A DNA stretch of 16,595 bases from a virus: positions 1 through 16,595 of the IMG/VR virus record IMGVR_UViG_3300045988_078457. One strand, given 5' to 3'. Below are positions 1-16,595 of this stretch, one piece after another; position 1 is the first letter of the stretch; every line of letters begins with the position of its first letter. The notes under the pieces were generated by a model. It made no database searches, had not been told where the DNA came from, and saw only the letters and a list, made by a program, of their open reading frames with translations. The translations under genes and the position numbers were made by a program.

Positions 1-58
1 AATGTATTATCTTTGTAGTACAATAATAAACAAGTATTAACTTATAAATAATAAAATT

Positions 59-298
59 ATGAAAAAAATAAATAAAATTTTAGTTGGCCTTTTAATTGTA
101 TCTTCAATTGTTGCAGGTTTTAGAGTAAATGAAGTCTATCAGGAAAGGCAACATAAAACATTTGAATTAAGATTAGAAAGAGCAGAATTAAAACATAAAT
201 TAGATTCAGTAATGTGGGTTAATCCAGCAAGTGAAGAAGTATCTAATTTATATGAAGAATATTGTGATTTAACACTTAAAATTAATAATATAAAATAA
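59..298 (+). CDS. Small N-terminally membrane-anchored protein with a charged helical C-terminal part (79 aa), function unknown
   Basis: Track ORF. The hydrophobic stretch ILVGLLIVSSIVAGF follows MKKINK and is followed by a charged helical segment (ERQHKTFELRLERAELKHKL). TAA stop at 296-298 overlaps the next ATG (TAATG). Confidence 0.5.
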   Translation: MKKINKILVGLLIVSSIVAGFRVNEVYQERQHKTFELRLERAELKHKLDSVMWVNPASEEVSNLYEEYCDLTLKINNIK

Positions 299-732
299 TG
301 AAAACAGATATAAGAAGCTTAGTCTTTACAAAGAATCTATTTAAAGAGAAATTTAATATAGACATAGAATGATGTAAAGACGATTACTCCAGATATGATG
401 GAACATTTAATTGGAATGGAATTGATTATATAATTGAAGTTAAAAGGAGGAGATTTAATTCTAATAAATACCCAACCACTATTATTAATAGGGATAAATT
501 TGATATGCTATCAAGAAATAATTCTATATTAGTAATAATATTTGATGATGGAGTATATATATTTAAAGATATAAAACAAGCCTTTATAAAGGATTCTATG
601 AAATATGGTTGTTCTACAACAGATTTTGGAGGAACTTATGGCTATTCATTAAAAACAGAGTTATCTTTAAAGAAAGCCATTAAGATAGATGTAAATACAG
701 AATTTAGTAATTATATAGCAAATGACGAATAA
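298..732 (+). CDS. PD-(D/E)XK-fold nuclease candidate (144 aa); one in-frame TGA read as Trp
   Basis: ATG at 298 is in the same frame as track ORF 505..732. The only interruption is TGA at 370-372 (..NIDIEWCKDD..). YDG...IDYIIEVKRR resembles the D...(D/E)xK catalytic core. TAA stop at 730-732. The CDS call is firmer than the function call. Confidence 0.55.
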
Positions 733-1030
733 TGAGATTATTACCAAATACTATGACTTCTGTCAAGAGTTAAAACTTAAATTTGGAATGGATGATGATT
801 GTTTCCAGATGTGTATACTAGACCTTCTGGAAACATCAAATCCAAAATTAAATCAGCTTGATAGCAAAAATGAATTGAAATTTTGGATTACAAGATTATT
901 TAAGAATTATTGGTTTAGTAAAACAAGTAGATATTACTATACCTATAAGAAATATTATGAGATTGTTAAAGAACCACTTGAACAACAAAATGACGAATTG
1001 GAGGATTGATTAAATGAAACGGAAGATTAA
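722..1030 (+). CDS. Sigma-70 region-2-like protein (N-terminal half of a sigma factor); 3' end ambiguous (1009 if TGA stops, 1030 if TGA=Trp)
   Basis: Track ORF 722..1009. CFQMCILDLLE ... ELKFWITRLFKNYWFSK resembles sigma-70/ECF region 2 helices. Reading TGA 1007-1009 as Trp adds WLNETED and ends at TAA 1028-1030. Confidence 0.45.
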
Positions 1031-1259
1031 TATTGACGATTTACTTACTGAGTATGAAATAGACTATAGTATGTTTACAAATATGGATGATAGATTATTA
1101 AGTATATATCCAAAATGGCTTGAGCTTAATAAGGCAGATAAGACAGTAATCATATTATATGCTGAATATCGCAGTTATAGAGAAGTTGGAAGAATATTGG
1201 GAATTAGTCATACTACAATTCAAAGATTTATTAAACAAATAAGAGAGAGATTATGTTAG
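1014..1259 (+). CDS. Sigma-70 region-4-like helix-turn-helix protein (81 aa)
   Basis: ..VIILYAEYRSYREVGRILGISHTTIQRFIKQIRERL is a typical region-4 HTH. An in-frame TAA at 1011-1013 directly precedes the ATG, so there is no 5' extension. TAG stop at 1257-1259. Confidence 0.5.
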   Translation: MKRKINIDDLLTEYEIDYSMFTNMDDRLLSIYPKWLELNKADKTVIILYAEYRSYREVGRILGISHTTIQRFIKQIRERLC

Positions 1260-1582
1260 AATTATTTATAATAGCAATAATAATAGTCTTTATAATTGAT
1301 TTATCTGGCGCTTTAGATAGTTTTAAACATAGTATTTGAAAAAGACTATTTAAAGGTATGCCTTATAAAGAAGATTGAAGACTAAAACCTTTAGATTGCA
1401 GTTTATGTATGACTTGGTGAATTGGATTACTATATATTCTTATTACAAGTCAATTTTCAATTTTAATGGTTGGATATATTGCACTATTAGCATTTATGAC
1501 TCCAATTATTAAAGATATTATGATATTATTAAAAGATGCATCTACTAAACTAATAGATGTTATATACAAACTTATTAATTAA
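1253..1582 (+). CDS. Two-TM membrane protein (109 aa) with a CxxC-x-WW motif (DUF1360-like); three in-frame TGA
   Basis: Absent from the track. Hand translation gives MLELFIIAIIIVFIIDLSGALDSFKHSIWKRLFKGMPYKEDWRLKPLDCSLCMTWWIGLLYILITSQFSILMVGYIALLAFMTPIIKDIMILLKDASTKLIDVIYKLIN. TGA at 1337, 1376 and 1418; TAA stop at 1580-1582. The sequence has two clear hydrophobic helices. Confidence 0.6.
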
Positions 1583-1671
1583 AAATTATATTTTATGGAA
1601 ACAGAAATTATTTATCACTACAAGAATGGAAAGTTAATTTCTATATTTACTTATACTAAAAAGCGCTAATT

Positions 1672-2007
1672 ATGAAACAATTAACAGAAGAGCAGTTTAA
1701 ATATTTAAGAGGATTTGAAGATAGATTTGTAACTGCAACTAAGTCTAATTATTGCAGAAATGTACAAAAGCAGGATGTAATTAAACTTAAAGAGATTTAT
1801 GAATATTTAATTGAACAAGAATATAGAATGAGCGTAGCTTGTGCTACTTGTATACTTAATCTTATAAAGAGGATTGCCCCAATCTATTTTGAATATCAAG
1901 AAAAACTAAAGGAAAATGAAAGTAAAGAATCAAGAACTGCCGAAGAAAACAGGGAGACCAAGAAAGGAAGAGGTAAAAGAGAATCAAATAGACGAACAAA
2001 AAACTAA
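1672..2007 (+). CDS. Hypothetical protein (111 aa) upstream of the terminase genes
   Basis: Track ORF with a TAA stop. The Lys/Glu/Arg-rich tail (from about 1916) overlaps the terS candidate in another frame, so the true 3' portion is uncertain. Confidence 0.4.
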   Translation: MKQLTEEQFKYLRGFEDRFVTATKSNYCRNVQKQDVIKLKEIYEYLIEQEYRMSVACATCILNLIKRIAPIYFEYQEKLKENESKESRTAEENRETKKGRGKRESNRRTKN

Positions 2008-2368
2008 ATATCTTTATGCAGCAAGATTATTTAATAAAGGATGATCTAGAAATAAAGTAAGCGAAGAACTTCAAACTAAATATGGAGTTGGGCAAACTAC
2101 TGCTGCTAAATATATTAGAGAAGCTTATAAGATTATTGCAGATAAAAACGATAATCTTATAAAGAATTTAAGACATATACAATTAACAAGATTGGAAACA
2201 TTGTTGGATATTGCTATTAGTAAAAATGATGTAAGATCTGCTACTGAGGTTATTAAAACAATAAATTCTATGTTTGGATTAAATCAACCAGAAATTCAAG
2301 TTAATATTCAAAATAATGAATGCCAATTTAAATTTGGAGATCCCATTATAAATGACAAGGATATATAA
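1916..2368 (+). CDS. terS: Terminase small subunit candidate (150 aa); one in-frame TGA
   Basis: ATG at 1916 is preceded by an in-frame TAA at 1907-1909. TGA at 2042-2044 reads ..FNKGWSRNK... A basic GRPRK N-terminus is followed by the HTH-like VSEELQTKYGVGQTTAAKYIREAY. It ends at TAA 2366-2368 and overlaps the terL start by 17 nt, the classic position 5' of terL. Confidence 0.55.
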
Positions 2369-3599
2369 AGGATATAGGCCATTTATGTACCAATATAAGG
2401 TTCATATAGCTATGGCAGATGCTTATAGATCTGGAAGGATATTTACAATTAAAGCTAAACGACAAGTAGGTAAATCTTTCTTAGCTGAAAATGAATTATT
2501 ACGATTTGCAATTAACTATCCAAAAACAGTCAATTGTATAGTAGAACCTACTCTTGGGCAATCAAGAAAAGTGTTTAAAGAAATAGTTAATGCTATAGCT
2601 GAAGCAGATATTCTTAAACGTAAGAATGAAACTTTGCTTGAATTAGAGTTTAATAATGGCAGTTCTATATTATTTAGATCTGGAGAACAAATGGATTCGT
2701 TACGAGGATTCTCTGTAAGTGGATTACTTGTATTAGATGAGGCTGCTTACTTAAAAGATGAAGTATTTGAAATTATTAAACCTACTACTGATGTGTGGTC
2801 TGCTCCAATATTAATTATTAGTACTCCAAGGTTCCGAGAGGGTTTCTTTTATGACTGCTTTACTAAAGGGTTAGATCCGAAATATGACAAGTTCTATAAA
2901 TCATTTGATTGAGCTTTAGAAGATACATCTATGCTTTTAGATAAAGAGAAGTTAGAGATGTATCGACTTACAACCTCAAAAAATAAATTTAGAACCGAAT
3001 ATTTAGGGGAATTTGCAGATGATGATGGATGTTTATTTAATAATATAGCTAATTGCATAATTGAGAAAAAACCAGATTATCAGAGTCTTTATATAGGAAT
3101 AGACTGGGCTACTGGAAGTGGTAAAGACTATACTTGTGTTACTGCTTTAAATGAATCTGGGCAAATGGTCTTTATAAAGTATTTTAACGATAAAACTCCA
3201 ACAGAGCAAGTTGATTTATTAACAAATATACTAACTGAGTATCAAGGATTTATAAAGATTGTACAAGTTGAACAAAACTCAATTGGTAGTGTCTTCTATG
3301 ATATGTTAGTTCGGAAGAATCCGAAAATCAGGATTATACGATTCTTAACTACTAATAAGAGTAAGGCAGATATAGTTAATAAGCTTCAAGCTGCTTTGGA
3401 GAATGAAAAGATAGGATTATTAAAAGATGATAAACTTTTAAATGAGTTAAGACTATATGAAGCTTCATATAATCCAAAAACTGGAAATATTAGTTATAAT
3501 GCTCCATCTGGATTTAATGATGATACAGTAATTTCATTAATGCTAGCCTATGACTCATTAAATACAAACAAAGGACATTATAATATTAAAATTAAATAG
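2352..3599 (+). CDS. terL: Terminase large subunit (415 aa); one in-frame TGA
   Basis: Track ORFs 2352..2912 and 2931..3599 share a frame and are joined through TGA 2910-2912 (..KSFDWALEDTSM..). Walker A-like AKRQVGKS, Walker B LLVLDEAAY, and nuclease-domain acidic motifs IGIDWATGSGKDYT and FNDDTVISLMLAY. TAG stop at 3597-3599. Confidence 0.9.
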
Positions 3600-3600
3600 T

Positions 3601-4260
3601 ATGAATGTAGCAACTAAATGGGAAGAAGTATCTTTAAAGAAATTTCAAGCTTTAAATGCATTTATTATGAGTGATGCAAAAATGACAGATTTAGATAGGA
3701 GTATTGAGATCTATGCATTACTTACAGATAACCCAGATGAAGCAAGGGATTCTTTATTAAATATGACTGTAGATCAATTATCTGCAGAACTTAGTAAAAT
3801 TCATTTTATTGTAAATAAATATAAATCTAAAGTTCCAGAAACTGAGTATGATATTGATGGTAATAAATATACAGTTCAATTAAATCTCAGAAATATGACT
3901 GCTGCTCAGTATATTGATTTTCAGAACTTTTATAAAGATTATGAAAAGAATCAGAAGTATATATTTTTATGCTTTTTAATTCCTAAAGGAAAGAAGTATA
4001 ATGAGGGCTATGATGTAATGGAATTAGCAGATGAATTATATGATAAAATTCCAATTACTATTGTTACAGATATTATGGTTTTTTTTTGCAAATTATTAGA
4101 GAGCTTAACCATAGCTACCCTAATCTCTTCAATGCGGGAGATGAAGAAATTGATGAAAAAGGAGAAAGATCCAGTAAAGAAATATCAATTACGGAAGAGG
4201 ATAGTTCAAGCGAGACAAACTCTGAATTTAGTCAAAAATGGAACTGGATTTGTTGAATAG
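3601..4260 (+). CDS. Tail assembly chaperone, G-like product (219 aa)
   Basis: Track ORF. The N-terminus KWEEVSLKKFQALNAFI.. and the NMTAAQYIDFQNF segment resemble phage TAC families. A -1 frame stays open across its 3' end. TAG stop at 4258-4260. Confidence 0.5.
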   Translation: MNVATKWEEVSLKKFQALNAFIMSDAKMTDLDRSIEIYALLTDNPDEARDSLLNMTVDQLSAELSKIHFIVNKYKSKVPETEYDIDGNKYTVQLNLRNMTAAQYIDFQNFYKDYEKNQKYIFLCFLIPKGKKYNEGYDVMELADELYDKIPITIVTDIMVFFCKLLESLTIATLISSMREMKKLMKKEKDPVKKYQLRKRIVQARQTLNLVKNGTGFVE

Positions 4261-4403
4261 ACAGAGTTAGTGAAGTAACAAGGTTAAACTGGCATCAAGT
4301 ATACGATATGCAAATTCAAGAGTTCTTGAATATTATTTGCTACTTACTTGATAAAGGAAAGGAAGAAAAAAGACAAATAGATCTTTGAAAAGCTAAACAC
4401 TAA
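3601..4403 (+). CDS. Putative -1 frameshift (GT-like) product of the tail assembly chaperone, about 267 aa
   Basis: The -1 frame is open from 4047 to TAA 4401-4403 if TGA 4254 and 4386 are read as Trp. It encodes an acidic linker plus ..SQKWNWICWIDRVSEVTRLNWHQVYDMQIQEFLNIICYLLDKGKEEKRQIDLWKAKH. Candidate slippery sites are a T9 run at 4079-4087 and G-AAA-AAG at 4155-4161. Confidence 0.45.
4079..4087 (+). promoter_or_regulatory. T9 homopolymer: candidate -1 ribosomal slippery site (T TTT TTT in the zero frame gtt ttt ttt tgc)
   Basis: The run of nine T lies inside the window where the 0 and -1 frames are both open (4047-4258). The alternative heptamer G AAA AAG is at 4155-4161. Confidence 0.35.
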
Positions 4404-4436
4404 AATGTCAGGTTTTATTTATTTTAACTACTAAAA

Positions 4437-4455
4437 GTGAGTAAAAAACTTGACA
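4437..4455 (+). promoter_or_regulatory. Conserved intergenic motif, copy 1 (GTGAGTAAAAAACTTGACA)
   Basis: Its last 18 nt are identical to 13456-13473. It matches 13359-13377 at GTGAGTAAAA and TGACA. It contains TTGACA, but no -10-like hexamer follows at 16-18 nt because the hairpin sits there. Confidence 0.5.
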
Positions 4456-4460
4456 CTTAA

Positions 4461-4489
4461 ATAGGGAGTAAATCTCCCTATTTGTGTTT
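4461..4489 (+). terminator. Rho-independent terminator-like hairpin
   Basis: ATAGGGAG (4461-4468), loop TAAAT, CTCCCTAT (4474-4481). The stem is extendable by two A-T pairs and is followed by TTGTGTTT. It lies downstream of the chaperone gene. Confidence 0.5.
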
Positions 4490-4525
4490 AGATACTCAAT
4501 ATGAGAATGATATATTTTAGTAAAA

Positions 4526-5005
4526 ATGGCAAATCAAGTTTTGGATTTTCCCAATTTAGAAGCTGTCTTAAAACAATATGGAGAACAATTACTTTCTATA
4601 TATAGACAGAAATTACTACAAACTGGTTCAGATGATACGGGAACTCTTGGTAATACACTTAATTATATAGTTGAAGATCAAGATGAAGTATATGAAGTTA
4701 GTTTGCAAATACAAGATTATTGGAAGTATGTTGAGGAAGGTAGAAGTGCGGGGAAATTTCCTCCTATTAGTGATATAAAAAGATGGATACAAACTAAACC
4801 TGTATTACCTCGTATATATAACGGATCACTTCCAACTATTGATCAATTAGTATATTTAATAGCAAGAAAGATTTCTAGAAGAGGAATTGAAGGCAAGCAT
4901 CTATTAGAGGAATCATTAACTGAATTAGATGCTTATATGTTATTAGATGATGCAATTACAAAAGATTTAGAAACACAAGTTGATAATGTATTTAAAAACT
5001 TTTAA
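4526..5005 (+). CDS. Virion morphogenesis / head-tail joining protein candidate (HK97 gp10-like), 159 aa
   Basis: Track ORF. YWKYVEEGRSAGKFPPISDIKRWIQTK resembles the gp10-like Y-x-x-x-V-E-x-G core. TAA stop at 5003-5005. The function call is weak. Confidence 0.45.
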   Translation: MANQVLDFPNLEAVLKQYGEQLLSIYRQKLLQTGSDDTGTLGNTLNYIVEDQDEVYEVSLQIQDYWKYVEEGRSAGKFPPISDIKRWIQTKPVLPRIYNGSLPTIDQLVYLIARKISRRGIEGKHLLEESLTELDAYMLLDDAITKDLETQVDNVFKNF

Positions 5006-5007
5006 AA

Positions 5008-7188
5008 ATGGCATTTATACCAAGTAAATTAGGAGTATATAACGCATCAAGGAGTTTTCCTGTTAAATGAAATAATCCTGGATGAGGAATTACTGGAGAA
5101 TATGATTATTGGACTTGGGGAGATGATTATACTGAAGAGGGTCCTTTAAATGTAACTATACAAGATCCAAGTACTTCTGGATGTACAATACAATTTTTAT
5201 CTCCCACAACAATAACTACTGATTCTTCTACTGTATTTCATTTTTATCCTAGAGGTCTTACTACTGCTTTATTAATGGAAGATTTACCAATTAATCTACA
5301 TAGTAAAGCTCCTGGATTCTATCCTGCTAATAGTAGTATTAATGTACCAAATACTGGTGGAGAATATACAGTAGAGTATATATTAAATAGATCAGATATT
5401 ATTAAATGAAATGCAGCAGTTGTTAATGCTACAGCTTTAGTTAATATGGAAGTTCTGGATTGGGATTCTTGCTCTATTAAGTTTAAATTCACAGTAAGAG
5501 CTAATACTCAATGAAATACAGATTTAACTGGAACTATCCAATTAGGAGCTTATTATGACACTAATAAGTTTATTAGTTATAGTTACGGCTTTAAAATTGA
5601 AAAAAGTAATACTCCAGAAGATTTAAAGTTAGTAGTAACTCCTTCATCTGGAACTTATGGAGCATCTGCTTTTGTTACTGAAGAATTCCATTTAAGTACA
5701 ACTAAAGCAGAAGAAACAATTACCTCATTTAATGTTACTTGTCCTCAAGCTAGTAATATTAAAAAGGATATTGTTGATAACTATTTTGTATTAACTGTTC
5801 CAGAGAATAAAACTACTAATAATTTGGAGTTTAGTGCAATGGTTACTGCAACAACTTCTGGGGGTTATAACCTTGAAGCTACAGTTCCAATTAAACAAGC
5901 TGTAACATCTTTAGTGATTCCTAATACTAATTATGAAGTAAGTTGAACTGCATCTACATTAAATATAATGGGTACAGGTTCAAATAACTTAGATGATGTT
6001 GTATTTAGTATTCCTGTAGGTTGGATTAGTGGTCAGAAGTTCTCTGTGAATCCTCAAGGTGTAGCAACTATTAGTTTGAATATTGCAGAAAATTCAGGTT
6101 TATCTTCTAGACAAGCAACTATTGGAGTATCTGTTATAAAGAATAGTTCAAGTATTATTAATTTATCTATTAATATTACACAATCTGTTAAATCAGATAT
6201 TTCTCAAATTTGGAAAGATTATGTTTGGGAAGAGGTGATTAGTTCAGATTTTATTGAATATCATCTAGATTATGCAGGAGATATGGTTTATGCTGGTAAA
6301 GCTTATAAATATCCAGAAACTGATAGAGTAGAGTTTTTATTAAATAATGTTGCTGAAAATTATCTATCTAATGGGATTATATTTAATACATCAAAAACAA
6401 TAGTATCACCAGAATATTTAAAACCATTTACATTAATAACTTCATCTGGAAATGAAAAGCCAATTACTTTTTTCAATGATTGGAGTTATAAAGATAGAGA
6501 TCTAACTAAAGGCACTATGTTAAGTGATCCTATTACTGGTTTAGTTGATCCAAGACAATATTTAGTAGCAAGTTGAATTTTACCAACTGGAACGGGAGTT
6601 GTTAATAGATTTTTTTATGTAGATGGAGCACAAACTGCTATGGATATTAGTTTAAATTCTGGAATTAATGGATATACATATACAGAAGATTTAAGCAATA
6701 AACTATGGCCTTGTGGGAGCTATTTAATAGTAGGATTTGTAGAAGACGGAAATATTAGTGATAGACAGATTAGATATGATATAGATACTACAGGTAAAGA
6801 TTATGTGTTATATTATACTAATTCAGCAGGTGGATGGGATTCATTACTTGTTGAGGGTAATGTTAAAAAGAATGATGAGATTAAATCTGAAACATATACT
6901 CGTAAGGTATTAAATACATCACAAGAGTTTGCAAGAAATAAGTATTTGAATACTATAACTTCAAGCTGGGTTCTTTATACTGGTTATTTAAATGATATTC
7001 AAGCTTCTAAGATGTTTAATTTAATTGAGAGTACCAAAGTATATTTGCATAATCTTAAAGATAATACTATCACTCCAGTATTGATTACAGATACAAATTG
7101 TGAATATAAAACTTATACTAATCAAGGTAAAAACAAGTTCTATTATACAATTAATGTAGAAGCTTCTCAAGATACTTATCGTAAATAA
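5008..7188 (+). CDS. Large tail/baseplate structural protein (726 aa): N-terminal Ig/BACON-like modules plus a C-terminal conserved tail-protein domain; six in-frame TGA
   Basis: ATG at 5008 shares a frame with track ORFs 5968..6576 and 6640..7188. Hand translation of 5008-5967 and 6577-6639 shows only TGA interruptions (5068, 5083, 5407, 5512, 5944, 6574). The BACON-like segment is ..EVSWTASTLNI..IPVGWISGQKFSVNPQGVATISLNIAENSGLSSRQATIGVS..INITQS. TAA stop at 7186-7188. Confidence 0.75.
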
Positions 7189-7190
7189 TT

Positions 7191-7670
7191 ATGGAAGTAT
7201 ATAAAGACATTAAAGGATATGAGGGACTTTACCAGATAAGTAATACTGGTAAAGTCTTCTCTATAAAAAACAATAAAGAACTGAAGAGTGGATATACTCC
7301 AGCTGGATATACAAAAGTTCAATTGTGAAAGAATAAGTCTGGCAAGTGATTCAATATTCATAGATTAGTTGCAGAAGCGTTTATTCCAAACGTAGAAAAC
7401 TTACCACAAGTAAATCATATAAATGAGATAAAGGAGGATAATAGGGTTGATAATTTAGAATGATGTACAGCTCAATATAATGTTACTTATGGAAATAGAT
7501 TAAATAATAATAAAAAACCTGTAATACAGGAAAGCTTAGATGGCACTTTTATAAAGAGATGAAATTCAATTGCTGATACTAAAAAATATGGGTTTGTTCC
7601 CCAAAATATAGGACAGTGTTGTATTGGTAATATTTCACAACATAAAGGATATATTTGAAAATATGCGTAA
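7191..7670 (+). CDS. Free-standing HNH homing endonuclease (NUMOD4 + HNH_3 type), 159 aa; five in-frame TGA and no TGG
   Basis: Hand translation gives [100 protein letters not shown] at 7326, 7347, 7461, 7560 and 7656. The last three sit at Trp positions that are conserved in this family. TAA stop at 7668-7670. Confidence 0.85.
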
Positions 7671-10600
7671 AAATATTAAATTATTTATTGCAGGAAAAGA
7701 AGTACATTGTTCTGAAGGCATATCATTACCAATGACTTATACTGTAGAAGATTTTCAGAATCCAACAATAGTAAAAAATTCATTCAGTAAGACTATAAGC
7801 ATTCCAGGAGACAAAAATAATAATAAGATTTTTGGAGAGATTTATAAGTTAGATAGATTTCTCCATATAAAAGAAGGTAATTTCTCTGGAGTATATTTTG
7901 ATCCTTCAAAACGAGTTGATTTTGGAATTTATAATAATGGCTATTTAGTTGAATCTGGATATATGCAATTAAATAGCATATCTATAAAACAAGCTGTCAT
8001 TACTTATAATATTACTTTATATGGAGGATTAGGAGATTTCTTCTATGGACTTAAATATAAAGAAGATGGTACTATTAGGACTCTTGCTGATTTACAATAC
8101 TTTGTAACTGATGAAGATGGGAATACACTTCCTGCTGATACTGAACTTAATTTTTATATTAACAAAGATTTTGTAAATACTTGTTTTGACTGAAGTAAAA
8201 CGAATGAAGGAAGTCAAATATATGATTATTTGACATTTATTCCAGCATATAATGGTTTATATGAAGATTTTGATAATGAAAGTTGTTTAATAAATACTAA
8301 TGAAAATAGTATATTTCCTACTAGTAAGACAGATTCAGGAGTTACATATACACCTTATAATGGATATGGATTAGCTAAATTAAATAGAGCATATACAGAA
8401 TGGGAGATGAGAGATCTTAGAAGTTATATGCAGAGACCAGCTTTAAAATTGAGTAAGTTAATTGAAACTATCTGTAGAAAAGAGAATTCTGGATATGATG
8501 TAGTATTTGATCCTTCATTTTTTAATTGAAATAATCCGTATTGAAGTAAATCCTTTGTAGCTTTACCTTTATTATCTAATCTAGTAAGTGACGAAGCAGA
8601 TGTAACAGAATCTGGCTTTTTAGTAGAAGATAGTAAATATAATTATCAGGTAGGTATAAATAAAGGAGAATCTACATCAAGTCCTTTAAAATTATCCATT
8701 ACATCACCTGATATTGTTTATGATTCTGGAATAATTGATTTAAGTGAGGCTGGATTTAGAAAAAGTCTTTCTACAACTTTTTATTTTAAGTTAAAGTTTA
8801 ATCGAACTGCAGGAAATGTTGGGGATAGATATTTTTTTGGATTTAGAAGATATTTTAGCTCCTCTGCTCCTCCTTTTTATTCAGCATATAGAGGGTATGC
8901 TGATGTTTGGCTAACAATTACTAATGAAGTAGATGATATTATTTATACTTCTGAAATACATAGATTTACAAATTCAGGAACCTACTCACATCCTATAGCT
9001 AATGGGGTTAATCATTTTGGTTATTTTCAAAATAATGTATTTTATGATACTTCTTCATTAACTAATGATTTTGTTATTAATATTACAGATTTTAAAATTC
9101 CAATTAATAAAATTAAAATTAAACTTAATGTTGTATGATCTACTGGAAATAGTGTTAGACCTACTGGATTATTAAGTGAAGTAATAGAAAGAGGAGAGGA
9201 TTACCAAGCTATTCCAAAAGGAGATCTTATAGTAGATCTTACTTCTCCCATTGAAATTACTACTTCTACAGAGGTACTTCAAAGTAATGCATTATTAACT
9301 AAAAAATTATTATTAAAAACAGAACAATCTCCTGCTGATTACTTATTGAGTTATGCAAAACTATTTGGGTTATATTTTACAAAAGATATTGATAGTAAAA
9401 CAATTAGAATATATACTAGAAATAATTTCTTTAAGAATATAATCTCTGATTGGAGTAAGAGAATAGATTATTCTAAAGATTTCAATGTAAATCCAATATT
9501 ATTTGATAAGAAGTGATATAGAATGAGTTCTGAAGGTCCAGAAACTTATTTTTATAAAAAATACAATAAGGAATATTCTATATTATATGGTCAACAAAGA
9601 TTAAATACTGGTTATAATTTTAATTCTGAAACAACTGAACTGTATAGTGATAATATATATGAAAATATAGTTTCTGCAAGATGGAGAAATAAATATTTTA
9701 GAAATTTTTACAATTCTTCTTCCCTTGTAGTTCCTGCATTTATGAATGATAATATTACCTATACATTATTTAATAATAGCACTACTGAACTTAAGACTAT
9801 AGATCAAGAGTTATACGGAGCTAATTTTATAGATCCCTCTAAAACCACAGAATGATATAAAATCGCAGGTAATGATATATTTGCCAAAAATGTATTTTTC
9901 TCAATTGATGGTAATGAGGAATCTTTAGAGGATATCTCTCAATCCCTAGTATTCTTTAACGGTAATGTTCCTTTAACTGATGTAAAAGGAAATGAAGTAA
10001 CATATTGAATTACAGATGATCTTACAGAAATGAACATATTAAATGATCAGGAAATGTGTTATATATCTACTAAAAGTGAGAAAGATATTAGTGGGAATAA
10101 AATTGCTATAAAGAGAACTGTATTACCTCAATTTACAAGGTATACCGTTTCGTCCTCTAATGTTACTGCTTCTTGAGATTTTGGATTACCACAAGAGATT
10201 TATATTGATGATATAACTTATAATATCGGAAGTACTATTTATAGTAGATTCTGAAGTGAATTTTATAATGATCAATTTGATGTTAATACTAAGAAAGTTA
10301 CTTGTTTTGTAAGATTGGATGATTTAGATGTTAAGTATGATTTACTTAGACAGTTCTATTATTTTGAAGATTCTTACTGGATACTTAATAAGATTGATGC
10401 TTATGATATTAATTCAGATTCTACAGTTAGATGCGAATTTATTAAAGTTCAAGATATTAATAGTTATTTAGCTGGAGTTCAAAATCTAGGTGAATATATA
10501 TCATTTGATGATTCAGATCCAGTTGTAGATTATAAAGCTGGAACTAAAAAGATTACAGTTACTTCTAATATTCCTTGGGAATTAGGATGATATAGTCCAA

Positions 10601-11022
10601 ATGAAATTGTAAGCGTTACACCTGAATCTGGGCAACCTGGAGAAACAGAATTAACAGTTACATATAATGAGAATACTACATATGACCAAAGGAGTTTCTA
10701 TTTTAGTCTTTATAAACAAGGAAGTATAAATGGCCCTCAATGTATGTTTACTCAAACTCCAGACCCAAATAAAGCTATTCTTATTACAGGAAAGCTTCAA
10801 ACTTCTACTGGAGGTATTCCTTCTGGCGTTAATCAGATTCTAACTGAAAATGATAATTTCTTAAATGTCACTTATATGAGAGATGATGGAAGTTATAGAA
10901 TATATGCTCAAAATGGAGTTCAGTTTAAATTTGAGGTGGCTGATGGACCAACAGGAACAGTTAAATATACAGAGAATTTAACACTAACAGAAGATACTGT
11001 TAAAAACGTAACTATAAACTAA
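7663..11022 (+). CDS. Very large tail-tip / receptor-binding-class structural protein (1119 aa) with a C-terminal BACON/Ig-like module; ten in-frame TGA
   Basis: Track ORFs 7624..8193, 8230..8529, 9523..9855, 10315..10590 and 10744..11022 all share one frame. I translated every gap by hand and found only TGA (8191, 8527, 8542, 9136, 9514, 9853, 10006, 10174, 10252, 10588). The likely start is ATG 7663 ([14 protein letters not shown]..). The BACON-like module is ITVTSNIPWELGWYSPNEIVSVTPESGQPGETELTVTYNENTTYDQRSFYFSL. TAA stop. Confidence 0.75.
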
Positions 11023-11023
11023 T

Positions 11024-13357
11024 ATGGCTGAAGAAATTAAAAAAGTAATTAGTGTAGATACTAAAACCAGTTCAAAGTCGATCAAGCAGCTACGAGAAGA
11101 AGTAGCTGGCTTGACGGCTGAACTTGAAGATCTTGAGATTGGTAGTACTGACTATACTAAAAAGCTTGAAGAACTTGTTAATGTTCAAAATAAGTTAGGT
11201 GTTGCTACAGAATCTATGCAAGGTAAAACTGTAAATGCAGTTAAGGCGTTTGACAGTATCAATCAAGTAGCAGGAGGTTTAGCTGGAGGAGTTTCAGCTG
11301 TTAGTGCAGCATTCACTTTATTTGGAAAAGATACAGAGAATCTTCAAAAAACTATGGTTAAATTGCAAGCAGCAATTGCCATAGTTCAGGGAATTGGAGG
11401 ATTAAAAGGTTTAGGTGAAGGTATTCTTAATGGAGTAAAATCATTTAAAGCCTTATCTGTGGCAATGGGTGGTGCTACAGCTGCAACTGGAGGATTATCT
11501 GTGGCAATGGGTGTGCTACGGTCTGCAATTATATCTACAGGAATTGGAGCTTTAGTTGTAGCTCTTGGTATGCTCGTAGATTTTGCAATTAAAGCAGCAT
11601 CAGGAATGGATGATTTAAAAATTAGTATTTCTGGTTTAAAAGATATAACTGATCAATGAGGAACAAGCTATGCCAGAACTAATACTGAAATTGCAGGATT
11701 GGAGAGACAAAGAGAGAGAGATTTAGCTGCTGGTAAAAAAAATGAAATACAAATTTGGAAAGATTATGCTGAAGCATTAGGAGATTTAGATGCTGAATTA
11801 TTTCAACAATTTGGTAGTGTAACTAAAGCATATTCTGATTCATTTACTAATATACTTAAAAGTAATAAATACTTCAAAAAAGAATTTAAGAAATCTGGAT
11901 ATGAAACTTGGGAAGATTATTCCGAAGCAATACAATGAGGATTAAAGAATAGTTCTAATGAAGTTGATTTCTTTTTAAGTAAGTTAAATGAGGATCAAAA
12001 AGCAGCTTATGATGAAGCTTCTGGTATTTATAATACATATCTTGAGAAGCGAAATGATTTAATGCAAAAATCTGCTGAAGCTTATGAAAAAGTTAAGTTA
12101 ATGGAGATTGCTGCAGAACGTAAGCAGAGAGAAGATGCTAAAGCCCAGTATCTAAAGAATATAGAAGATAGAAAGAAACATAATCAAGATCTGCTTAAAG
12201 TTATTAACGATTTCTATGAAGAAAATAGGAAACTTCTTTTAGATGATGAAGCAAGAGAACTTGATGAATTAAATAGAAACTACCAGAATCAATTAGATGC
12301 ACTTAAAGAAGCCTACAATCTCAAATTAATAACAGTTAAAGAATATAATGAGAGATTAAAGCAGGTAAATGATGCATATAATAAAGAGTGACTAGATAAT
12401 AATAATGAACGTTATAGGGAAGACTTAGAAAATAGATTGTCTGCATTACAAGAAATGCAGGATAGGGAATCTCAATTATTTGCAAATAAAGAGGCTGCAT
12501 TATCTGCAGGTAAATCTGGAAGTTATGAAACTAGAGTTCAACAATTTGGTTCAACTGATTTCTATCAATCTAGAGAAGATGTTCAAAGACAATATCAAGA
12601 TACATTAGCTTATAATGAACAGTTATATAATCTTACCAAAGATAGAATTACAAGAGAGAATGAATTGATGTCTCAACAGCAAGCTATCTTAGATGAGCAA
12701 TATAACAATAAGCTGATAACTGAACAAGAATATGCTAATCAATCTCAAGCAATCAAATTACAGCAAGAAGCTAATGATATAGCTTTATCAGAAGCAGCTA
12801 ATGCAAGAGAAGAAGCAGATCTTCAAGCATTTAAAGATAGACAAGCTAAAAAGCAACAGGCTATTCAAGCTACTATGAATGTAGCTTCTTCTTTAAGTGG
12901 AGCTTTAGCTAATGTATTTAAACAAGAAGCTAGTGATGACAAGAAGAGTGAGAAACAGAGGGAGAAATCATTTAAAGTTTATAAAGCATTAGCTACTACT
13001 CAAGCTATTATTGATACTATCAGTTCTGCCCAAGGTGCATATAAAGCTATGGTAGGTATTCCGATTGTAGGTCCTATCCTTGCTCCTATTGCTGCTGCTA
13101 CTGCTGTTATAGCTGGTATTGCTAATGTAAAAGCTATCCAGAATGAACAATTACCTTCATCTGGAGGTTCTGGAAGTGATGCAGGAACTACTGCTCCTGT
13201 TGCTTTAAATACTGCTCCTGTAGAATATACTCGAAACTTACTTGGCAATAAAGAGACTGATGAATTGAATCAACCTGTTAAATGTTATGTAGTTGAGAGT
13301 GATATTACTAACGCTCAAACTAAAGTTGCAGTTACAGAATCAAATGCAAGTTTCTAA
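11024..13357 (+). CDS. Tape measure protein candidate (777 aa); three in-frame TGA
   Basis: Track ORFs 11024..11659, 11699..11938, 12062..12391 and 12437..13357 share a frame and are joined through TGA 11657, 11936 and 12389. Long Glu/Lys/Gln-rich coiled-coil stretches are flanked by Gly/Ala-rich hydrophobic blocks (GGLAGGVSAVSAAFTLFG.., ..MVGIPIVGPILAPIAAATAVIAGIANV), which is typical of TMPs. An internal ejection protein is an alternative. TAA stop at 13355-13357. Confidence 0.65.
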
Positions 13358-13358
13358 A

Positions 13359-13377
13359 GTGAGTAAAATTTCTGACA
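13359..13377 (+). promoter_or_regulatory. Conserved intergenic motif, copy 2 (GTGAGTAAAATTTCTGACA)
   Basis: It starts 2 nt after the TMP stop codon. It shares (C)TAAAGTGAGTAAAA and TGACAC with copy 1 at identical spacing and is immediately followed by a long hairpin. Confidence 0.45.
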
Positions 13378-13421
13378 CACTACTATGTAAGTTGCTGATT
13401 ATCAGTGCTTATATAGTAGTG
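13378..13421 (+). terminator. Long imperfect hairpin (about 19 bp including G-U pairs) after the tape-measure gene; terminator or RNA-processing/regulatory structure
   Basis: CACTACTATGTAAGT (13378-13392) pairs with GCTTATATAGTAGTG (13407-13421). An apical CTGA/TCAG stem (13395-13398 / 13402-13405) closes a TTA loop. Downstream is only moderately T-rich (caaaatttatttatctt). Confidence 0.4.
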
Positions 13422-13455
13422 CTATGTCAAAATTTATTTATCTTAGATACAAATT

Positions 13456-13496
13456 TGAGTAAAAAACTTGACATTTGATAGTATATAAATATATAA
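13456..13496 (+). promoter_or_regulatory. Conserved motif copy 3 plus a sigma-70-like promoter for the capsid operon
   Basis: TGAGTAAAAAACTTGACA (13456-13473) gives an A-tract plus TTGACA (13468-13473). TATATA / ATATAA follows at a 16-17 nt spacing (13490-13496). It lies about 60 nt upstream of ATG 13553. Confidence 0.5.
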
Positions 13497-13552
13497 AAAT
13501 AAAAGATTGTAACAATATTACATTTTTAAAATAGCTTATATATTAATAAAAA

Positions 13553-14146
13553 ATGGAAAAAATGTATAATGATCTTCCATTATATCAAGCAATTATTGCT
13601 GATGATTGTGATGGAATAGAGTTCGTAGCATTGACCAGTAAACCTGCAACCCAAGTTAATTGGCTTGCTTTTGGGGAATCTCAGAAGTTCTCGATGGATG
13701 AAGAAAAACATATAGTTACTTCTTGTTTAATGGTATGTGATATACCTATATTTAGACGGGATAGTAAAAACGGAGAATATTATATTCAATATGATAAAGA
13801 AACTCTCCGTTTAATGGCTGAAAAAATGATGTATGATAAGAGAACTACTGATGTAAATATTGAACATTTGGAAGATTCGGTAATTCCTGGAATAATTCTT
13901 CAAGAGCTATATATTAAAGATATAGATAGAGGAATTAATCCAGTTGAATTTGCTGATTGTCCAGATGGTTCATTATTTGCTACTTATAAAGTGAATAATC
14001 CTGTTATATGGGATGCAATTAAAGCTGGCAAGTTTAAAGGATTCTCTATTGAGGGATTGTTTACTTTAGAAAGACAATCTGATGAATATGAGGAACTTAA
14101 AGAGATTCAAAAAATGTTGAGAAAAATAAAAAGAGTTAAACATTAA
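13553..14146 (+). CDS. XkdF-like putative prohead serine protease / scaffold-associated domain protein (197 aa)
   Basis: Track ORF. ..EKHIVTSCLMVCDIPIFRRDSKNGEYYIQYDKETLRLMAEKMM.. and ..YKVNNPVIWDAIKAGKFKGFSIEGLF match my recollection of the XkdF (Peptidase_S78_2) pattern. It sits directly 5' of the scaffold and capsid genes. Confidence 0.55.
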   Translation: MEKMYNDLPLYQAIIADDCDGIEFVALTSKPATQVNWLAFGESQKFSMDEEKHIVTSCLMVCDIPIFRRDSKNGEYYIQYDKETLRLMAEKMMYDKRTTDVNIEHLEDSVIPGIILQELYIKDIDRGINPVEFADCPDGSLFATYKVNNPVIWDAIKAGKFKGFSIEGLFTLERQSDEYEELKEIQKMLRKIKRVKH

Positions 14147-14152
14147 TTAATT

Positions 14153-14758
14153 ATGAGTAAATTCACAAAAATTAAACTTGAGTTAGCTAAGATGCTTGCA
14201 AAGTTCAGTGATGTTAAAACTGACAAGGCTGTGCTTACTTGGGATTCAGATGAGGATCTGAGAGAAGGTATGGATGTTTATGTAGCTGATGAAAATGGCG
14301 AATATGCACCTGCTGCTGATGGTGAGTATGTTACCGAAGATGGCAAAACGATTGTTGTTAAAGACGGTAAAGTAGAGTCCATTACTGATCCTAAAGCTGA
14401 AGTTGATCCAGAAGAGGGTATGAGAACTGTTGAGGTTGATGCTGCTTGTGGAACTAAGAGAGTAAAAGCTGAGGAAGTTGCTGATCCTGCTGTTGAAACA
14501 GACGGTGTTAAAGAAACTGAGACTGATGCAATCGACGCTATTCATCGCGAAATTAATGAGCTTTACGATATTGTAGATAAGCTTGTTAAGAAAGTAGCAG
14601 AACTTGAAGGAAAATCAGAAGCTACTGAAAAGACTGTAGAAAAAATGAGTAAGATGAGTGCTGCTTTTTCAGCAGAGGAAACACTTGAAAATAAAACAAC
14701 TGCTCCTATAAGTGGGATAGCAGAAATAGATAGAAAGCTTAAAAACTTTATTGGTTAA
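14153..14758 (+). CDS. Scaffolding protein candidate (201 aa, acidic, helical C-terminus)
   Basis: Track ORF. It is highly acidic with a coiled-coil-like C-terminal half (REINELYDIVDKLVKKVAELEGKSEATEKTVEKM) and lies between the XkdF-like gene and the capsid gene. Confidence 0.55.
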   Translation: MSKFTKIKLELAKMLAKFSDVKTDKAVLTWDSDEDLREGMDVYVADENGEYAPAADGEYVTEDGKTIVVKDGKVESITDPKAEVDPEEGMRTVEVDAACGTKRVKAEEVADPAVETDGVKETETDAIDAIHREINELYDIVDKLVKKVAELEGKSEATEKTVEKMSKMSAAFSAEETLENKTTAPISGIAEIDRKLKNFIG

Positions 14759-14779
14759 TTTATAAAATTTTAAATAATT

Positions 14780-15679
14780 ATGGCAAATAGTCCTGTAATG
14801 ACAACGCTTCCTGCTTATGTGGAGCAAAGACGTCTCCCTCTTATTAAGGAAGCTGTTTTAAAAGCTAAGAGTGCAAGTTTGTTCAATCTTCAGACAGATA
14901 TTAAAACTGATGCTGCTCTTAACCTGTTATCTACCGATATTCAGTTCGGTGATGGTCTTACTTGTGGTTGGGATGAGGCTGGAACTCAGACTCTTTCGCA
15001 GAGAATTCTTAAGACTGGTAATATTAAGATTAATATGGCATATTGCGATAAGGCTATGCTGAAATACTGGACTCAGTATGCAGTTAAGGTAGCCGCTGGT
15101 CAGAAGACGCTTCCTTTTGAAGAGGATTTCGTAAATGCTGTTGTAGAGAATGTAAAAGAGGCTATTGAGGTAGCTATCTGGCAGGGTGATACGACTTCAG
15201 ATACTAATAACTTAAAGTATTTTGATGGTCTGCTTAAGATTCTTGCTGCTGATGCTGGTACTGTAGAAATTGCTGGAGCATCTGCTTATACTGACATTAT
15301 GGCAGTTTATAATGCAATTCCTGAGAAGGTTCTTGATGGTGCTTCTATTCTTGTTGGTGCTGATATGTTCCGTAAGTTCGTAAATGAACTTGTTGAGAAG
15401 AACTATTTCCACTATAGCGGAGAGAGCCTTGATGGTGAGATTTATCTTCCTGGTTCACAGGTTAAGGTTATTGCTGTTAATGGTCTTAATGGAACTGGTA
15501 AGATTGTTGCTGGTCAGTTAGACAAGAACTTCTTCTATGGTGTAGATATGATGAACGACGAAGAGAAATTCGAATTGTGGTATTCACAGGATTTCCGCGA
15601 GTTCAGATTAGCTATTGAATTTAACGCTGGTGTACAAGTTGCTTTCCCTAACGAAGTAGTATTAGGTGCCAAGGCTTAA
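14780..15679 (+). CDS. Major capsid protein candidate (299 aa)
   Basis: Track ORF. The call rests on position after the protease/scaffold genes, its size, and strongly biased codons (T-ending GGT/GCT/CTT/GTT) with locally higher G+C, consistent with the most highly expressed gene. Confidence 0.7.
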   Translation: MANSPVMTTLPAYVEQRRLPLIKEAVLKAKSASLFNLQTDIKTDAALNLLSTDIQFGDGLTCGWDEAGTQTLSQRILKTGNIKINMAYCDKAMLKYWTQYAVKVAAGQKTLPFEEDFVNAVVENVKEAIEVAIWQGDTTSDTNNLKYFDGLLKILAADAGTVEIAGASAYTDIMAVYNAIPEKVLDGASILVGADMFRKFVNELVEKNYFHYSGESLDGEIYLPGSQVKVIAVNGLNGTGKIVAGQLDKNFFYGVDMMNDEEKFELWYSQDFREFRLAIEFNAGVQVAFPNEVVLGAKA

Positions 15680-15719
15680 TTTCAATAGATTTTATTAACT
15701 TCTAAATGATATTGAAATT

Positions 15720-16244
15720 ATGGCTTGTTTAATAACTATCGCAGGAATCACACTTGATTGCCAACCTTCGTTAGGTGGTATCAAACAGGTTTGGATTACC
15801 CAGTATGCAGATGTTAAAAGTGTAACGGTTGATCCTGAGAGCAATATGATTTCAGCTATTACTCTTGAGTCTTCAGCTAAATGGTATAACTACCAATTTA
15901 GAAAGGCTACTGGTTCTCTAACCTCAACTTTAAATGTAGATGAAAGTGCTGGTGTTAATTATGTAAGTAATGAGCTTGCTCTTGTATTTACAAAGATGGA
16001 AACAGCAAAACGAGTAGAGATTGCAGCTTTATCTATTGGACAGCTTGCAGTTGTTGTTGAAGATAGCAATGGTAAGTATTGGTTCTTAGGTAAAGATGAT
16101 TATGTAAGCGCTTCCGCTGGTACGGGTGTTACTGGTACTGCTAAAGGTGATCAGAATGCTTATACTCTGACACTTTCAACAGATTCAGATTCTTATCCTT
16201 ATGAGTTATCTGCAGAAGCTATCCAAAGCGTTGTAGGTGCTTAA
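15720..16244 (+). CDS. Major tail (tube) protein candidate (174 aa)
   Basis: Track ORF. The pattern GGIKQVWIT..AKWYNYQFRKATGSLTS..ELALVFTKME..RVEIAAL..LAVVVEDSNGKYWFLGKD..GTGVTGTAKGDQNAYTLTL resembles siphovirus tail-tube families. It shares the capsid operon's codon bias. A head-tail connector or decoration protein is not excluded. Confidence 0.4.
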   Translation: MACLITIAGITLDCQPSLGGIKQVWITQYADVKSVTVDPESNMISAITLESSAKWYNYQFRKATGSLTSTLNVDESAGVNYVSNELALVFTKMETAKRVEIAALSIGQLAVVVEDSNGKYWFLGKDDYVSASAGTGVTGTAKGDQNAYTLTLSTDSDSYPYELSAEAIQSVVGA

Positions 16245-16254
16245 TAACAGAAAG

Positions 16255-16292
16255 AGGGGCGAGTATTAATTTACTTGCCCCTTATTTTGTTT
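16255..16292 (+). terminator. Rho-independent terminator closing the capsid operon
   Basis: AGGGGCGAGTA (16255-16265), loop TTAATT, TACTTGCCCCT (16272-16282). The stem is 11 bp with one G-U pair and is followed by TATTTTGTTT. Confidence 0.8.
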
Positions 16293-16335
16293 ATATAACA
16301 CATAATGAATAATTTATATTTTATAGAAAAATAAT

Positions 16336-16595
16336 ATGGCAATAGTATTTATATCAGAACCAGTAGCTAAAAATACTACAACTAAAAATTTAGATTTAAT
16401 TAAAGCTGCTGAATGTAAGTTACAAGAGAAATCAGTGGAATATACTCAAAATGCAGAGTTTGAAGTACTGCCAGATGAGGGATATGATGGAATGTCTAAG
16501 GTAAATGTATCTGTTGATGTAGTAGTGCCTACAGTTCAAGCTTCCAAAGCAATTACAATTACTCAGAATGGACCAATAGAGATTCTTCCTGACTC
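16336..16595 (+). CDS. Structural protein, 5' fragment (runs off the window); tail-fibre-like N-terminal module
   Basis: ATG at 16336 is open to the window end: MAIVFISEPVAKNTTTKNLDLIKAAECKLQEKSVEYTQNAEFEVLPDEGYDGMSKVNVSVDVVVPTVQASKAITITQNGPIEILPD. The motif LQEK-x-V-x(4-8)-PD-x-GYDG(M/L)SKV-x-V recurs in phage fibre-like proteins as far as I recall. Confidence 0.5.
   Translation, partial: MAIVFISEPVAKNTTTKNLDLIKAAECKLQEKSVEYTQNAEFEVLPDEGYDGMSKVNVSVDVVVPTVQASKAITITQNGPIEILPD

Follow-up and report, generated by a model that had tools for sequence, protein, structure and literature searches.

Comparative sequence evidence that TGA is read as tryptophan in a 29-kb gut phage lineage

Which genetic code is used by the viral DNA of IMG/VR record IMGVR_UViG_3300045988_078457, and does that code belong to the virus or to its host? 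Called with the standard code, positions 1 to 16,595 of the record (the whole stretch analyzed here, referred to below as the window) yield 30 open reading frames (ORFs) of at least 60 amino acids (aa), the longest of 306 aa, which together cover 71% of the DNA. An earlier note had proposed that TGA is systematically reassigned to Trp across most of the element. The overall best explanation, to which we give a probability of about 0.85, is that TGA means Trp (translation table 4) in a gut phage with a genome of 29.07 kb, and that this recoding is probably a property of the phage lineage.

The window makes up the left 16.6 kb of a genome of ∼29.07 kb that closes on itself, which we reconstructed from overlapping contigs reached by exact look-ups of two TGA-free proteins. 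It is part of a human-gut tailed phage, the genome of which is circular or circularly permuted. There are ∼38 genes and 1.4 kb of non-coding DNA, and the gene content includes the large terminase subunit (TerL), a tape measure protein, a portal, a protease-like protein, the major capsid protein (MCP), a holin-like gene, an M15 endolysin, several HNH/NUMOD homing endonucleases and a divergently transcribed helicase-like gene of 573 aa.

All 32 coordinates listed in the earlier note are TGA triplets, and they lie in the frames implied there. One credible in-frame TGA, at 1007 in the gene 722–1030, had been overlooked, and although most of the listed codons do join ORFs of the same frame, those at 4254 and 4386 sit in a −1 frameshift extension rather than in a plain ORF. 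TGAs 4502 and 4508 are upstream of the real ATG at 4526 and hence outside credible genes, while TGA 13476 is inside a doubtful 62-aa ORF. The code-4 gene frames of the window hold 36 TGA and 42 TGG codons and no TAA or TAG, as had been stated for the merged frames; TAA and TAG are abundant in the off-frames of these genes (212–413 TAA per off-frame). Likewise, gene ends in the window are all TAA or TAG, and the same is true of 38 of 38 genes in the 29.07-kb genome, none of which ends in TGA. Genome-wide, we count 47 in-frame TGA codons and 63 TGG codons, and the frequency of Trp rises from 0.70% to 1.22% once TGA counts as Trp, the latter being a more typical value. The proposed span, 298 to 13357, does not mark the end of the phenomenon, as the portal, the endolysin and other genes beyond the window also carry in-frame TGA.

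When genes are called again with TGA as sense, greedy ORF coverage increases from 0.71 to 0.94 and the longest ORF grows from 306 to 1132 aa. Control read-through of TAG or TAA gives coverages of 0.73 and 0.82, respectively, and no comparable long ORFs. With TAA and TAG as the only stops, the pieces merge to give ORFs of 144, 102, 109, 150, 415, 726, 159, 1119/1132 and 777 aa. Is it conceivable that the TGAs are real stops or errors, and that this is a standard-code element made up of short genes, pseudogenes or assembly mistakes? Standard-code calling does yield many ORFs of 60–300 aa. However, the fragments invariably share a frame and are never separated by TAA or TAG, and both Pfam domains and alignments to homologues span the TGAs. 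The large terminase subunit (2352–3599, + strand; 415 aa), which carries TGA 2910 in its ATPase domain, is restored to full length as predicted, with both of its Pfam domains regained upon merging (Terminase_6N, residues 37–231; Terminase_6C, residues 248–401). A public gene caller gives the merged products of 726, 159, 1119 and 777 aa in most samples, and those of 726, 1119 and 777 aa are the ones given in the earlier note; in a sample called with code 11 (L007), TerL is broken into 175 and 222 aa, the kind of shredding that the note had expected from the standard code. The tail proteins and the tape measure protein likewise break up under that code.

The note had also named two observations that would speak for real stops or errors, namely fragments conserved as independent genes in relatives and TGAs that are assembly errors. 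In standard-code relatives, single ORFs code for the merged proteins. Assembly error is excluded, because the same TGAs recur in independent ENA, JGI, Logan and IMG/VR data: contigs from ENA and JGI are 100% identical to the window over the overlap, Logan contigs are ∼99% identical, and about 40 related IMG/VR genomes show the in-frame TGA feature. We therefore see next to no chance that these codons are stops or mistakes.

The amino acid is almost certainly Trp, judging from comparisons among strains and with homologues. Where strains 90–99% identical to the window carry a substitution at one of its TGA or TGG codons, it is in every case an exchange between TGA and TGG, and there are six such sites (1116, 2042, 5068, 5083, 5512 and 6835); codon 2042, for example, is TGA in two and TGG in five related strains. 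In 27 standard-code relatives, the residues opposite TGA are Trp in 32.8% of cases (background 0.6%) and Tyr in 12.2% (background 5.1%). For comparison, TGG columns are 56% Trp in these relatives. Individual columns are in some cases invariant, as at nt 10252 in the 1119-aa protein (Trp 14/14), and in others mixed, as at nt 8542 (Trp 9, Tyr 5, Phe 2) and nt 9514 (Tyr 9, Trp 7) of the same protein; in TerL, column 2910 is Trp in three of four standard-code relatives.

The other meaning of TGA to be considered is Gly (table 25), as in phages of Absconditabacteria/Gracilibacteria, a possibility that the earlier note had suggested checking. The low GC content of the phage (30%) resembles that of those hosts, and such phages have been reported from human-associated samples. 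Yet Gly makes up only 4.8% of residues at TGA columns in the 27 relatives, compared to a background of 6.4% and to 64% at true Gly columns, and hence shows no enrichment. Moreover, none of the between-strain changes is TGA to or from GGN, six of six being between TGA and TGG, and in the HNH, endolysin, portal and tail proteins TGA falls on columns where Trp is conserved. We consider it extremely improbable that TGA specifies Gly here.

One of these proteins is the NUMOD4/HNH_3 homing endonuclease (7191–7670, + strand; 159 aa; identified by Pfam), which contains five TGA and no TGG codons. We searched with a query carrying X at the TGA positions and counted homologues of ≤60% identity. Column 91, within the NLEW motif, and columns 124 and 156 are Trp in 105/118, 95/118 and 117/118 homologues, respectively, with no Gly, while columns 46 and 53 are variable. 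Thus the claim that TGAs occupy the conserved Trp of NLEW, (K/R)W and IWKY stands, and the remaining two of the five TGA columns are variable. In three cultured Enterococcus phages, the NLEW column is encoded by TGG; of the four further TGA columns, three hold Tyr, Phe or Cys in these phages, and column 53 is variable. In the endolysin, the single TGA falls in a Trp column for which Bacteroides phage BF10P2 and an Achromobacter phage have TGG, and across the HNH, endolysin, portal and tail proteins the Trp columns that coincide with TGA are encoded by TGG in cultured standard-code phages. A membrane protein of 109 aa (1253–1582, + strand) contains TGAs at 1337, 1376 and 1418, opposite which the nearest standard-code relative (L056) has TGG, TAC and TGG; the last of these is the codon that the earlier note had pointed to in a CxxC-x-W-W context. 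In the reverse direction, the TGAs of an independent code-4 relative (L054) stand opposite Trp codons of the window 11 times and opposite Tyr or Phe codons six times.

To place this code among related phages, we gathered 80 IMG/VR sequences by MCP alignment and classified the code of each by coding density. Code 4 was assigned to 41 relatives, among them all of those with at least 87% MCP identity and three at 65–70%. L056, with 66% MCP identity and 28% GC, uses the standard code. This genome (L056 together with L136, IMGVR_UViG_3300029905_000019) is complete at 30128 bp, has collinear structural genes and contains no tRNA. Its stop codons are 35 TAA, 3 TAG and 2 TGA; hence L056 has almost given up TGA, which fits the divest-then-recapture path of Borges et al. 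In the same genome, an ORF at 4100–4675 ends in TGA and is followed one codon on by a 77-aa ORF in the same frame (4679–4912). The stretch 4100–4912 may be one gene with an in-frame TGA, a sign of incipient recoding. A relative with an MCP 48% identical (L017, from a Bacteroidaceae metagenome-assembled genome (MAG) bin) reads TAG as sense, and 16 TAGs fall within its alignment. Among the more distant relatives, most use the standard code, and GC contents range from 28% to 58%. The MCP gave no match among cultured phages, Crassvirales included.

TGA is not used as an ordinary A-ending codon in this phage. It accounts for 0.43–0.45 of Trp codons, compared to a share of 0.83 for A-ending codons in the other NNA/NNG pairs (P ∼5e-18). 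In the Mycoplasma phages MAV1 and phiMFV1, which have similar GC contents, TGA makes up 0.77 and 0.87 of Trp codons and is present in nearly all genes. Within the window, a capsid block (13553–16244, + strand) encodes a protease-like protein (13553–14146), a scaffold-like protein (14153–14758), the MCP (14780–15679) and a 174-aa protein (15720–16244), all on the + strand and with PHROG protease and virion matches in the block. Its 10 Trp codons are all TGG, where a TGA fraction of 0.68 is expected from the other A/G pairs (P ∼1e-5). The block has a raised GC content (0.31–0.40, versus ∼0.28 elsewhere) and more G-ending codons, and it continues to ∼19.5 kb. Across distinct relatives, the TGA:TGG counts are 2:147 for the MCP, 2:92 for the 174-aa protein, 5:56 for the protease, 11:111 for the portal and 0:20 for the helicase-like protein. 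Over the tail, HNH, TerL and lysis genes, TGA fractions range from 0.30 to 0.95 (e.g. 0.30 for the 726-aa protein, 0.42 for the 1119-aa protein, 0.47 for the tape measure protein, 0.64 for TerL and 0.88 for HNH). We read this pattern as selection against TGA where many copies of a protein are needed, which would mean that TGA is decoded less efficiently than TGG. Such usage fits suppression-type decoding better than translation in a native code-4 cell. It is also at odds with a simple model in which late genes are the recoded ones.

A TGA-free block raises the possibility that the genome is coded block-wise, with an early/capsid part in which TGA is still a stop, a recoded late part, and a switch between the two during infection. 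The region 13553–19523 and the helicase-like gene are indeed free of TGA, and temporal regulation has been proposed by Borges et al. However, there is no TGA-terminated gene anywhere, so that the standard meaning is nowhere needed in this genome; the TGA-free block would fit either code. The TGA-free genes encode the most abundant late proteins (capsid, protease and portal) rather than early ones, while TGA is present in the putative early genes with which the plus-strand operon begins. In addition, a 17-mer that lies ahead of the capsid block (see below) also precedes TGA-rich modules. We regard block-wise dual coding as quite improbable, and favor one code, with TGA as Trp, for the whole genome.

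How, then, might TGA be decoded? As suggested in the earlier note, we looked for tRNA genes with ARAGORN, and found none in the window, in eight loci or in ∼69 relatives, although a positive control was detected. No UCA anticodon emerged in any of the ARAGORN modes, permissive ones included (default, intron, low-threshold or mitochondrial), an Rfam search at E ≤ 1 likewise brought up no tRNA, and a pattern scan of the 1.4 kb of non-coding DNA revealed no UCA anticodon stem-loop. The release-factor genes that the note had also proposed to look for were not found in searches of Pfam, PHROG, NCBIfam and precomputed domains, nor did these searches detect an aminoacyl-tRNA synthetase, a deaminase or an integrase in the complete genome. 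The idea that a suppressor tRNA lies elsewhere in the genome was rejected, since scans of the full 29.07 kb and of ∼69 relatives returned nothing. Leaky-stop context was likewise rejected: the base following TGA is A in 49% and C in 2% of cases, with no enrichment of TGA-C. Finally, the TGA-free 573-aa protein was considered as recoding machinery. It has no Pfam, NCBIfam or PDB sequence match, and members of its family are also found in integrated elements that use the standard code (L138–L140). The protein is therefore not specific to recoding; it is a general replication or mobile-element protein.

Given no phage tRNA and a host that we infer to use the standard code, decoding would therefore rely on something other than a phage tRNA. 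A host tRNA, either near-cognate tRNA-Trp or a modified form, could read UGA in combination with weakened termination by release factor 2 (RF2); alternatively, a helper element could supply the decoder. One version of this idea is that the 47 TGAs are read as Trp in a standard-code Bacteroidota cell that has been switched by a small phage protein or by a co-resident element carrying a suppressor tRNA. A phage protein of this type might block RF2, such that host tRNA-Trp then reads UGA, or might edit or modify the anticodon of tRNA-Trp. We put this forward tentatively, as a proposal with the odds somewhat against it. If true, the lineage would be a minimal and tractable setting in which to find the tRNA-independent code switch on which most code-4 gut phages appear to depend, and the scarcity of TGA in capsid genes would show what inefficient suppression costs.

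Several clues bear on the host. The best match of the endolysin is to a Bacteroides fragilis phage (51%), followed by crAss-like, Prevotella and other Gram-negative phages. Shine-Dalgarno-like motifs precede only 3 of 37 genes. In the 1119-aa tail protein there is a BACON match, although below the Pfam threshold. Homologues of the 573-aa protein reside in elements inserted into bacterial contigs of standard code, next to BACON-domain genes and with integrases of a Bacteroidota style. Taken together, these features favor a walled, standard-code, probably Bacteroidota host. MAG bins were also tried as a source of host assignments, and rejected: two relatives lie in bins labeled Azospirillum sp. 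CAG:239 and Bacteroidaceae, and both relatives are contigs of phage size that may be mis-binned. The Bacteroidota promoter motif TAnnTTTG was rejected as well, since its total count equals the compositional expectation; it is suggestive only in where it sits, in the divergent intergenic region. One relative with 87% MCP identity (L050/L099, IMGVR_UViG_3300045988_175865) lies at the end of a contig of 148,631 bp, which was considered as an integrated copy from which the host might be read. This contig runs through the circular junction of the phage and is phage DNA as far as seen, and a scan with conserved 21-mers returned no other parts of it. It could be a strain concatemer or chimera, or a larger element.

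The principal competitor to lineage-level recoding is that the phage simply mirrors a host in which TGA is natively Trp, either Mycoplasmatota-like or an unrecognized code-4 gut lineage, such that no phage machinery is needed. This would account for the lack of a tRNA, release factor or synthetase in the complete 29-kb genome and in ∼69 related loci, and for the occurrence of TGA across almost every class of gene, those that begin the main operon among them; most cultured code-4 phages, moreover, are phages of Mycoplasma or Spiroplasma. What argues against mirroring is, first, codon usage, with a TGA share of 0.43, and near 0 in capsid genes, as opposed to 0.77–0.87 in Mycoplasma phages. Second, its genes include a holin and an M15 peptidoglycan endolysin, the nearest relatives of the latter being in Bacteroides, crAss-like and Prevotella phages; hence the host has a cell wall. 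Third, the same clade holds both standard-code members and a TAG-recoded member, and reading of TAG as Gln is not known from any bacterium. Code-4 bacteria are also rare in human gut metagenomes, where this phage is widespread. On balance, mirroring seems unlikely, and we lean, with some reserve, toward recoding that belongs to the phage lineage and takes place in a host with the standard code, probably one of the Bacteroidota. Between the settings that the earlier note had offered, recoding by the phage lineage, as in crAss-like or Lak phages, is thus favored over a code-4 host such as Mycoplasmatota.

A separate case of recoding was seen in a prophage unrelated to this phage (L137; ENA ERZ28598220 scaffold_71, locus 5900–21740). 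It is TAG-recoded, is one of the integrated elements with a homologue of the 573-aa protein, and lies beside a tRNA-Thr(CGT) in a host contig that is standard-code, with genes of its own ending in TGA. Its integrase and a 579-aa replication protein contain no in-frame TAG.

Some considerations weigh against the explanation that we prefer. A host that already reads TGA as Trp would be the simplest explanation for two facts, that the phage has no tRNA and that TGA occurs in the very first genes on the plus strand (370, 1007 and 1337–1418). Placement of the host is indirect, with no CRISPR spacer match and no integrated copy, and the Bacteroidota clues are individually weak: endolysin similarity and Shine-Dalgarno scarcity are suggestive only, the BACON match is sub-threshold, and the MAG bins with relatives may consist of mis-binned phage contigs. 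Avoidance of TGA in capsid genes could instead reflect recombination with standard-code relatives, given the higher GC content of that block. And Trp at TGA is deduced from sequence.

The two TGAs that do not fit a plain ORF mark a second unusual feature. A 219-aa gene in frame 0 (3601–4260, + strand), with homologues in L016, L017 and L056, contains a slippery run of nine T residues (T9) at 4079–4087 (GTT TTT TTT TGC in frame 0). The −1 frame opens at this run, overlaps the end of the gene and ends with TAA at 4401–4403; this extension (4086–4403, + strand) lacks an ATG start, carries TGAs 4254 and 4386, and would be reached by frameshifting at T9. Between 4227 and 4403, 27 of 42 between-strain substitutions are on the third position of the −1 frame, and this frame is therefore coding. 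The T9 run, in an IMFFFV context, and a homologous −1-frame peptide are also present in L005 (53% identity) and in L056 (48%), the standard-code genome, where TGG stands opposite 4386 and TAT opposite 4254. These comparisons indicate that T9 is a conserved site of either −1 programmed frameshifting or transcriptional slippage. The layout is similar to that of the tail-assembly-chaperone G/GT genes, but the T9 gene does not adjoin the tape measure gene.

Non-coding DNA of the phage contains a repeated element. The 17-mer GAGTAAAAAACTTGACA has three exact copies on the + strand of the genome, compared to 0.22 expected, and is confined to intergenic DNA. In the window, it is found at 4439–4455 (+ strand), followed by a hairpin in a structured region (z = −5.0), and at 13457–13473 (+ strand), just upstream of the capsid block, with a degenerate copy at 13361. 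Further copies in the reconstructed genome are at 28811–28827 and ∼22249. The upstream context of the copies is conserved and a hairpin usually comes after them, and they precede the early/terminase, tail, capsid and portal modules. The 17-mer is a candidate phage-specific module promoter or regulatory site, and an 81-aa protein resembling helix-turn-helix (HTH)/sigma-r4 proteins is encoded at 1014–1259. Structured intergenic regions bracket the capsid block, at 13358–13552 (z = −4.6) and 16245–16335 (z = −5.8), the latter including a GC-rich terminator-like hairpin at ∼16254–16283. The divergent intergenic region (genome 28748–29071 plus window 1–58) is 17% GC, with z near −7, and contains 52-nt direct repeats and long imperfect inverted repeats. 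On the basis of this structure and these repeats, it is likely the replication origin and divergent promoter region.

The remaining genes of the window, all on the + strand, are as follows. A code-4 ORF at 298–732, with TGA 370, encodes a 144-aa protein, also 144 aa in the public caller, for which there was no Pfam and no PHROG match. The gene at 722–1030 encodes 102 aa, as in the public caller, and runs 7 aa past its code-11 end by way of TGA 1007; the L056 homologue is also 102 aa, with a gap in this column, which is therefore uninformative. Upstream of TerL is a 150-aa protein (1916–2368), with TGA 2042. The preceding 333 nt (1583–1915) were left uncalled by the public gene caller, and a TGA-free 111-aa ORF (1672–2007) overlaps the start of gene 1916–2368 by 92 nt in a different frame. 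These two could be a second frameshifted or overlapping pair, perhaps a small terminase. A 726-aa structural protein, likely of the tail (5008–7188; six TGAs; TGA/TGG exchanges between strains at 5068, 5083, 5512 and 6835), precedes the HNH gene, which is followed by the 1119-aa tail/host-recognition protein (7663–11022; 10 TGAs), with its weak BACON-like C-terminal domain, and by the 777-aa tape measure protein (11024–13357; three TGAs), identified by matches to PHROG tape-measure families. Homing endonuclease content differs between strains. L005, L009 and L010 lack the window HNH gene and have different NUMOD/HNH insertions instead (in L005, at 3733–4395, 6759–7328, 10664–11158 and 11682–12167).

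Recognizing table 4 matters for contigs of this type, as their annotation, clustering and host prediction depend on it. The present lineage is small and abundant in public data, with dozens of near-complete genomes. With these many genomes, a sister genome that has divested TGA (L056) and a TAG-recoded cousin (L017), it offers a good comparative system for stop-codon loss, recapture and the cost of decoding.

Stop-codon recoding is well established in uncultivated gut phages (Yutin et al. 2021, PMC7886860; Borges et al., 10.1101/2021.08.26.457843, Nat Microbiol 2022), and for uncultivated phages PMC9610469 cites Ivanova et al. 2014. Recoding of TGA is much rarer than that of TAG, with 46 UHGV viral operational taxonomic units (∼0.08%) and, in a Dutch study, 21 of 58,776 contigs (PMC9610469). 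Sup-TCA tRNAs were reported in 35% (Borges et al., 10.1101/2021.08.26.457843) or 15% (Cook et al. 2024, PMC11210395) of code-4 phages, and validation at the protein level, by mass spectrometry, has been published only for code 15 (PMC9523058). The Garnet and Amethyst (both ∼34 kb) and Topaz (∼22 kb) clades of Borges et al. mix codes 11, 15 and 4. With these clades (22–34 kb), this phage shares a human or animal gut habitat, a small genome, TGAs aligned with Trp, a mixture of codes 11, 4 and 15 within the clade, and a closely related standard-code genome depleted of TGA stops; and ∼65% of the code-4 genomes of Borges et al. lack a suppressor tRNA, as it does. However, Garnet and Topaz include prophages, the integrases of which avoid the recoded codon, whereas the complete genome of this phage has no integrase; and avoidance in those clades is limited to integrase and replication genes, whereas here it is strongest in the capsid-core late genes. 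The likeness is one of genome size, habitat and mixed-code behavior only.

Other recoded phages resemble it in part. Crass-like phages (Yutin et al. 2021; Cook et al. 2024) are also low-GC gut phages with a probable Bacteroidota host and a reassigned stop, either TGA or TAG, and their endolysins are 44% identical to that of this phage; yet they are ∼100 kb in size and recode a late block, as opposed to a genome of ∼29 kb that is recoded throughout with no suppressor tRNA. The Mycoplasma phages MAV1 and phiMFV1 and the Spiroplasma phages likewise read TGA as Trp, stop at TAA and TAG, encode no tRNA and have low GC. But TGA makes up 77–87% of Trp codons in MAV1 and phiMFV1, compared to 43% here and ∼1% in the MCP, and the hosts of those phages have no peptidoglycan, whereas this phage encodes a Peptidase_M15_3/PHROG 894 endolysin and a holin-like gene. 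The code-25 phages of Absconditabacteria/Gracilibacteria (Liu et al. 2023, PMC10746230) share in-frame TGA in most genes and low GC, but in them TGA is Gly, while here Trp is enriched and Gly is not. TGA-recoded gut phages are thus already known, and this lineage adds a member to them. What distinguishes it is the combination of small size, no tRNA in a complete genome, avoidance of TGA in the capsid core, and a standard-code sister genome that has divested itself of TGA.

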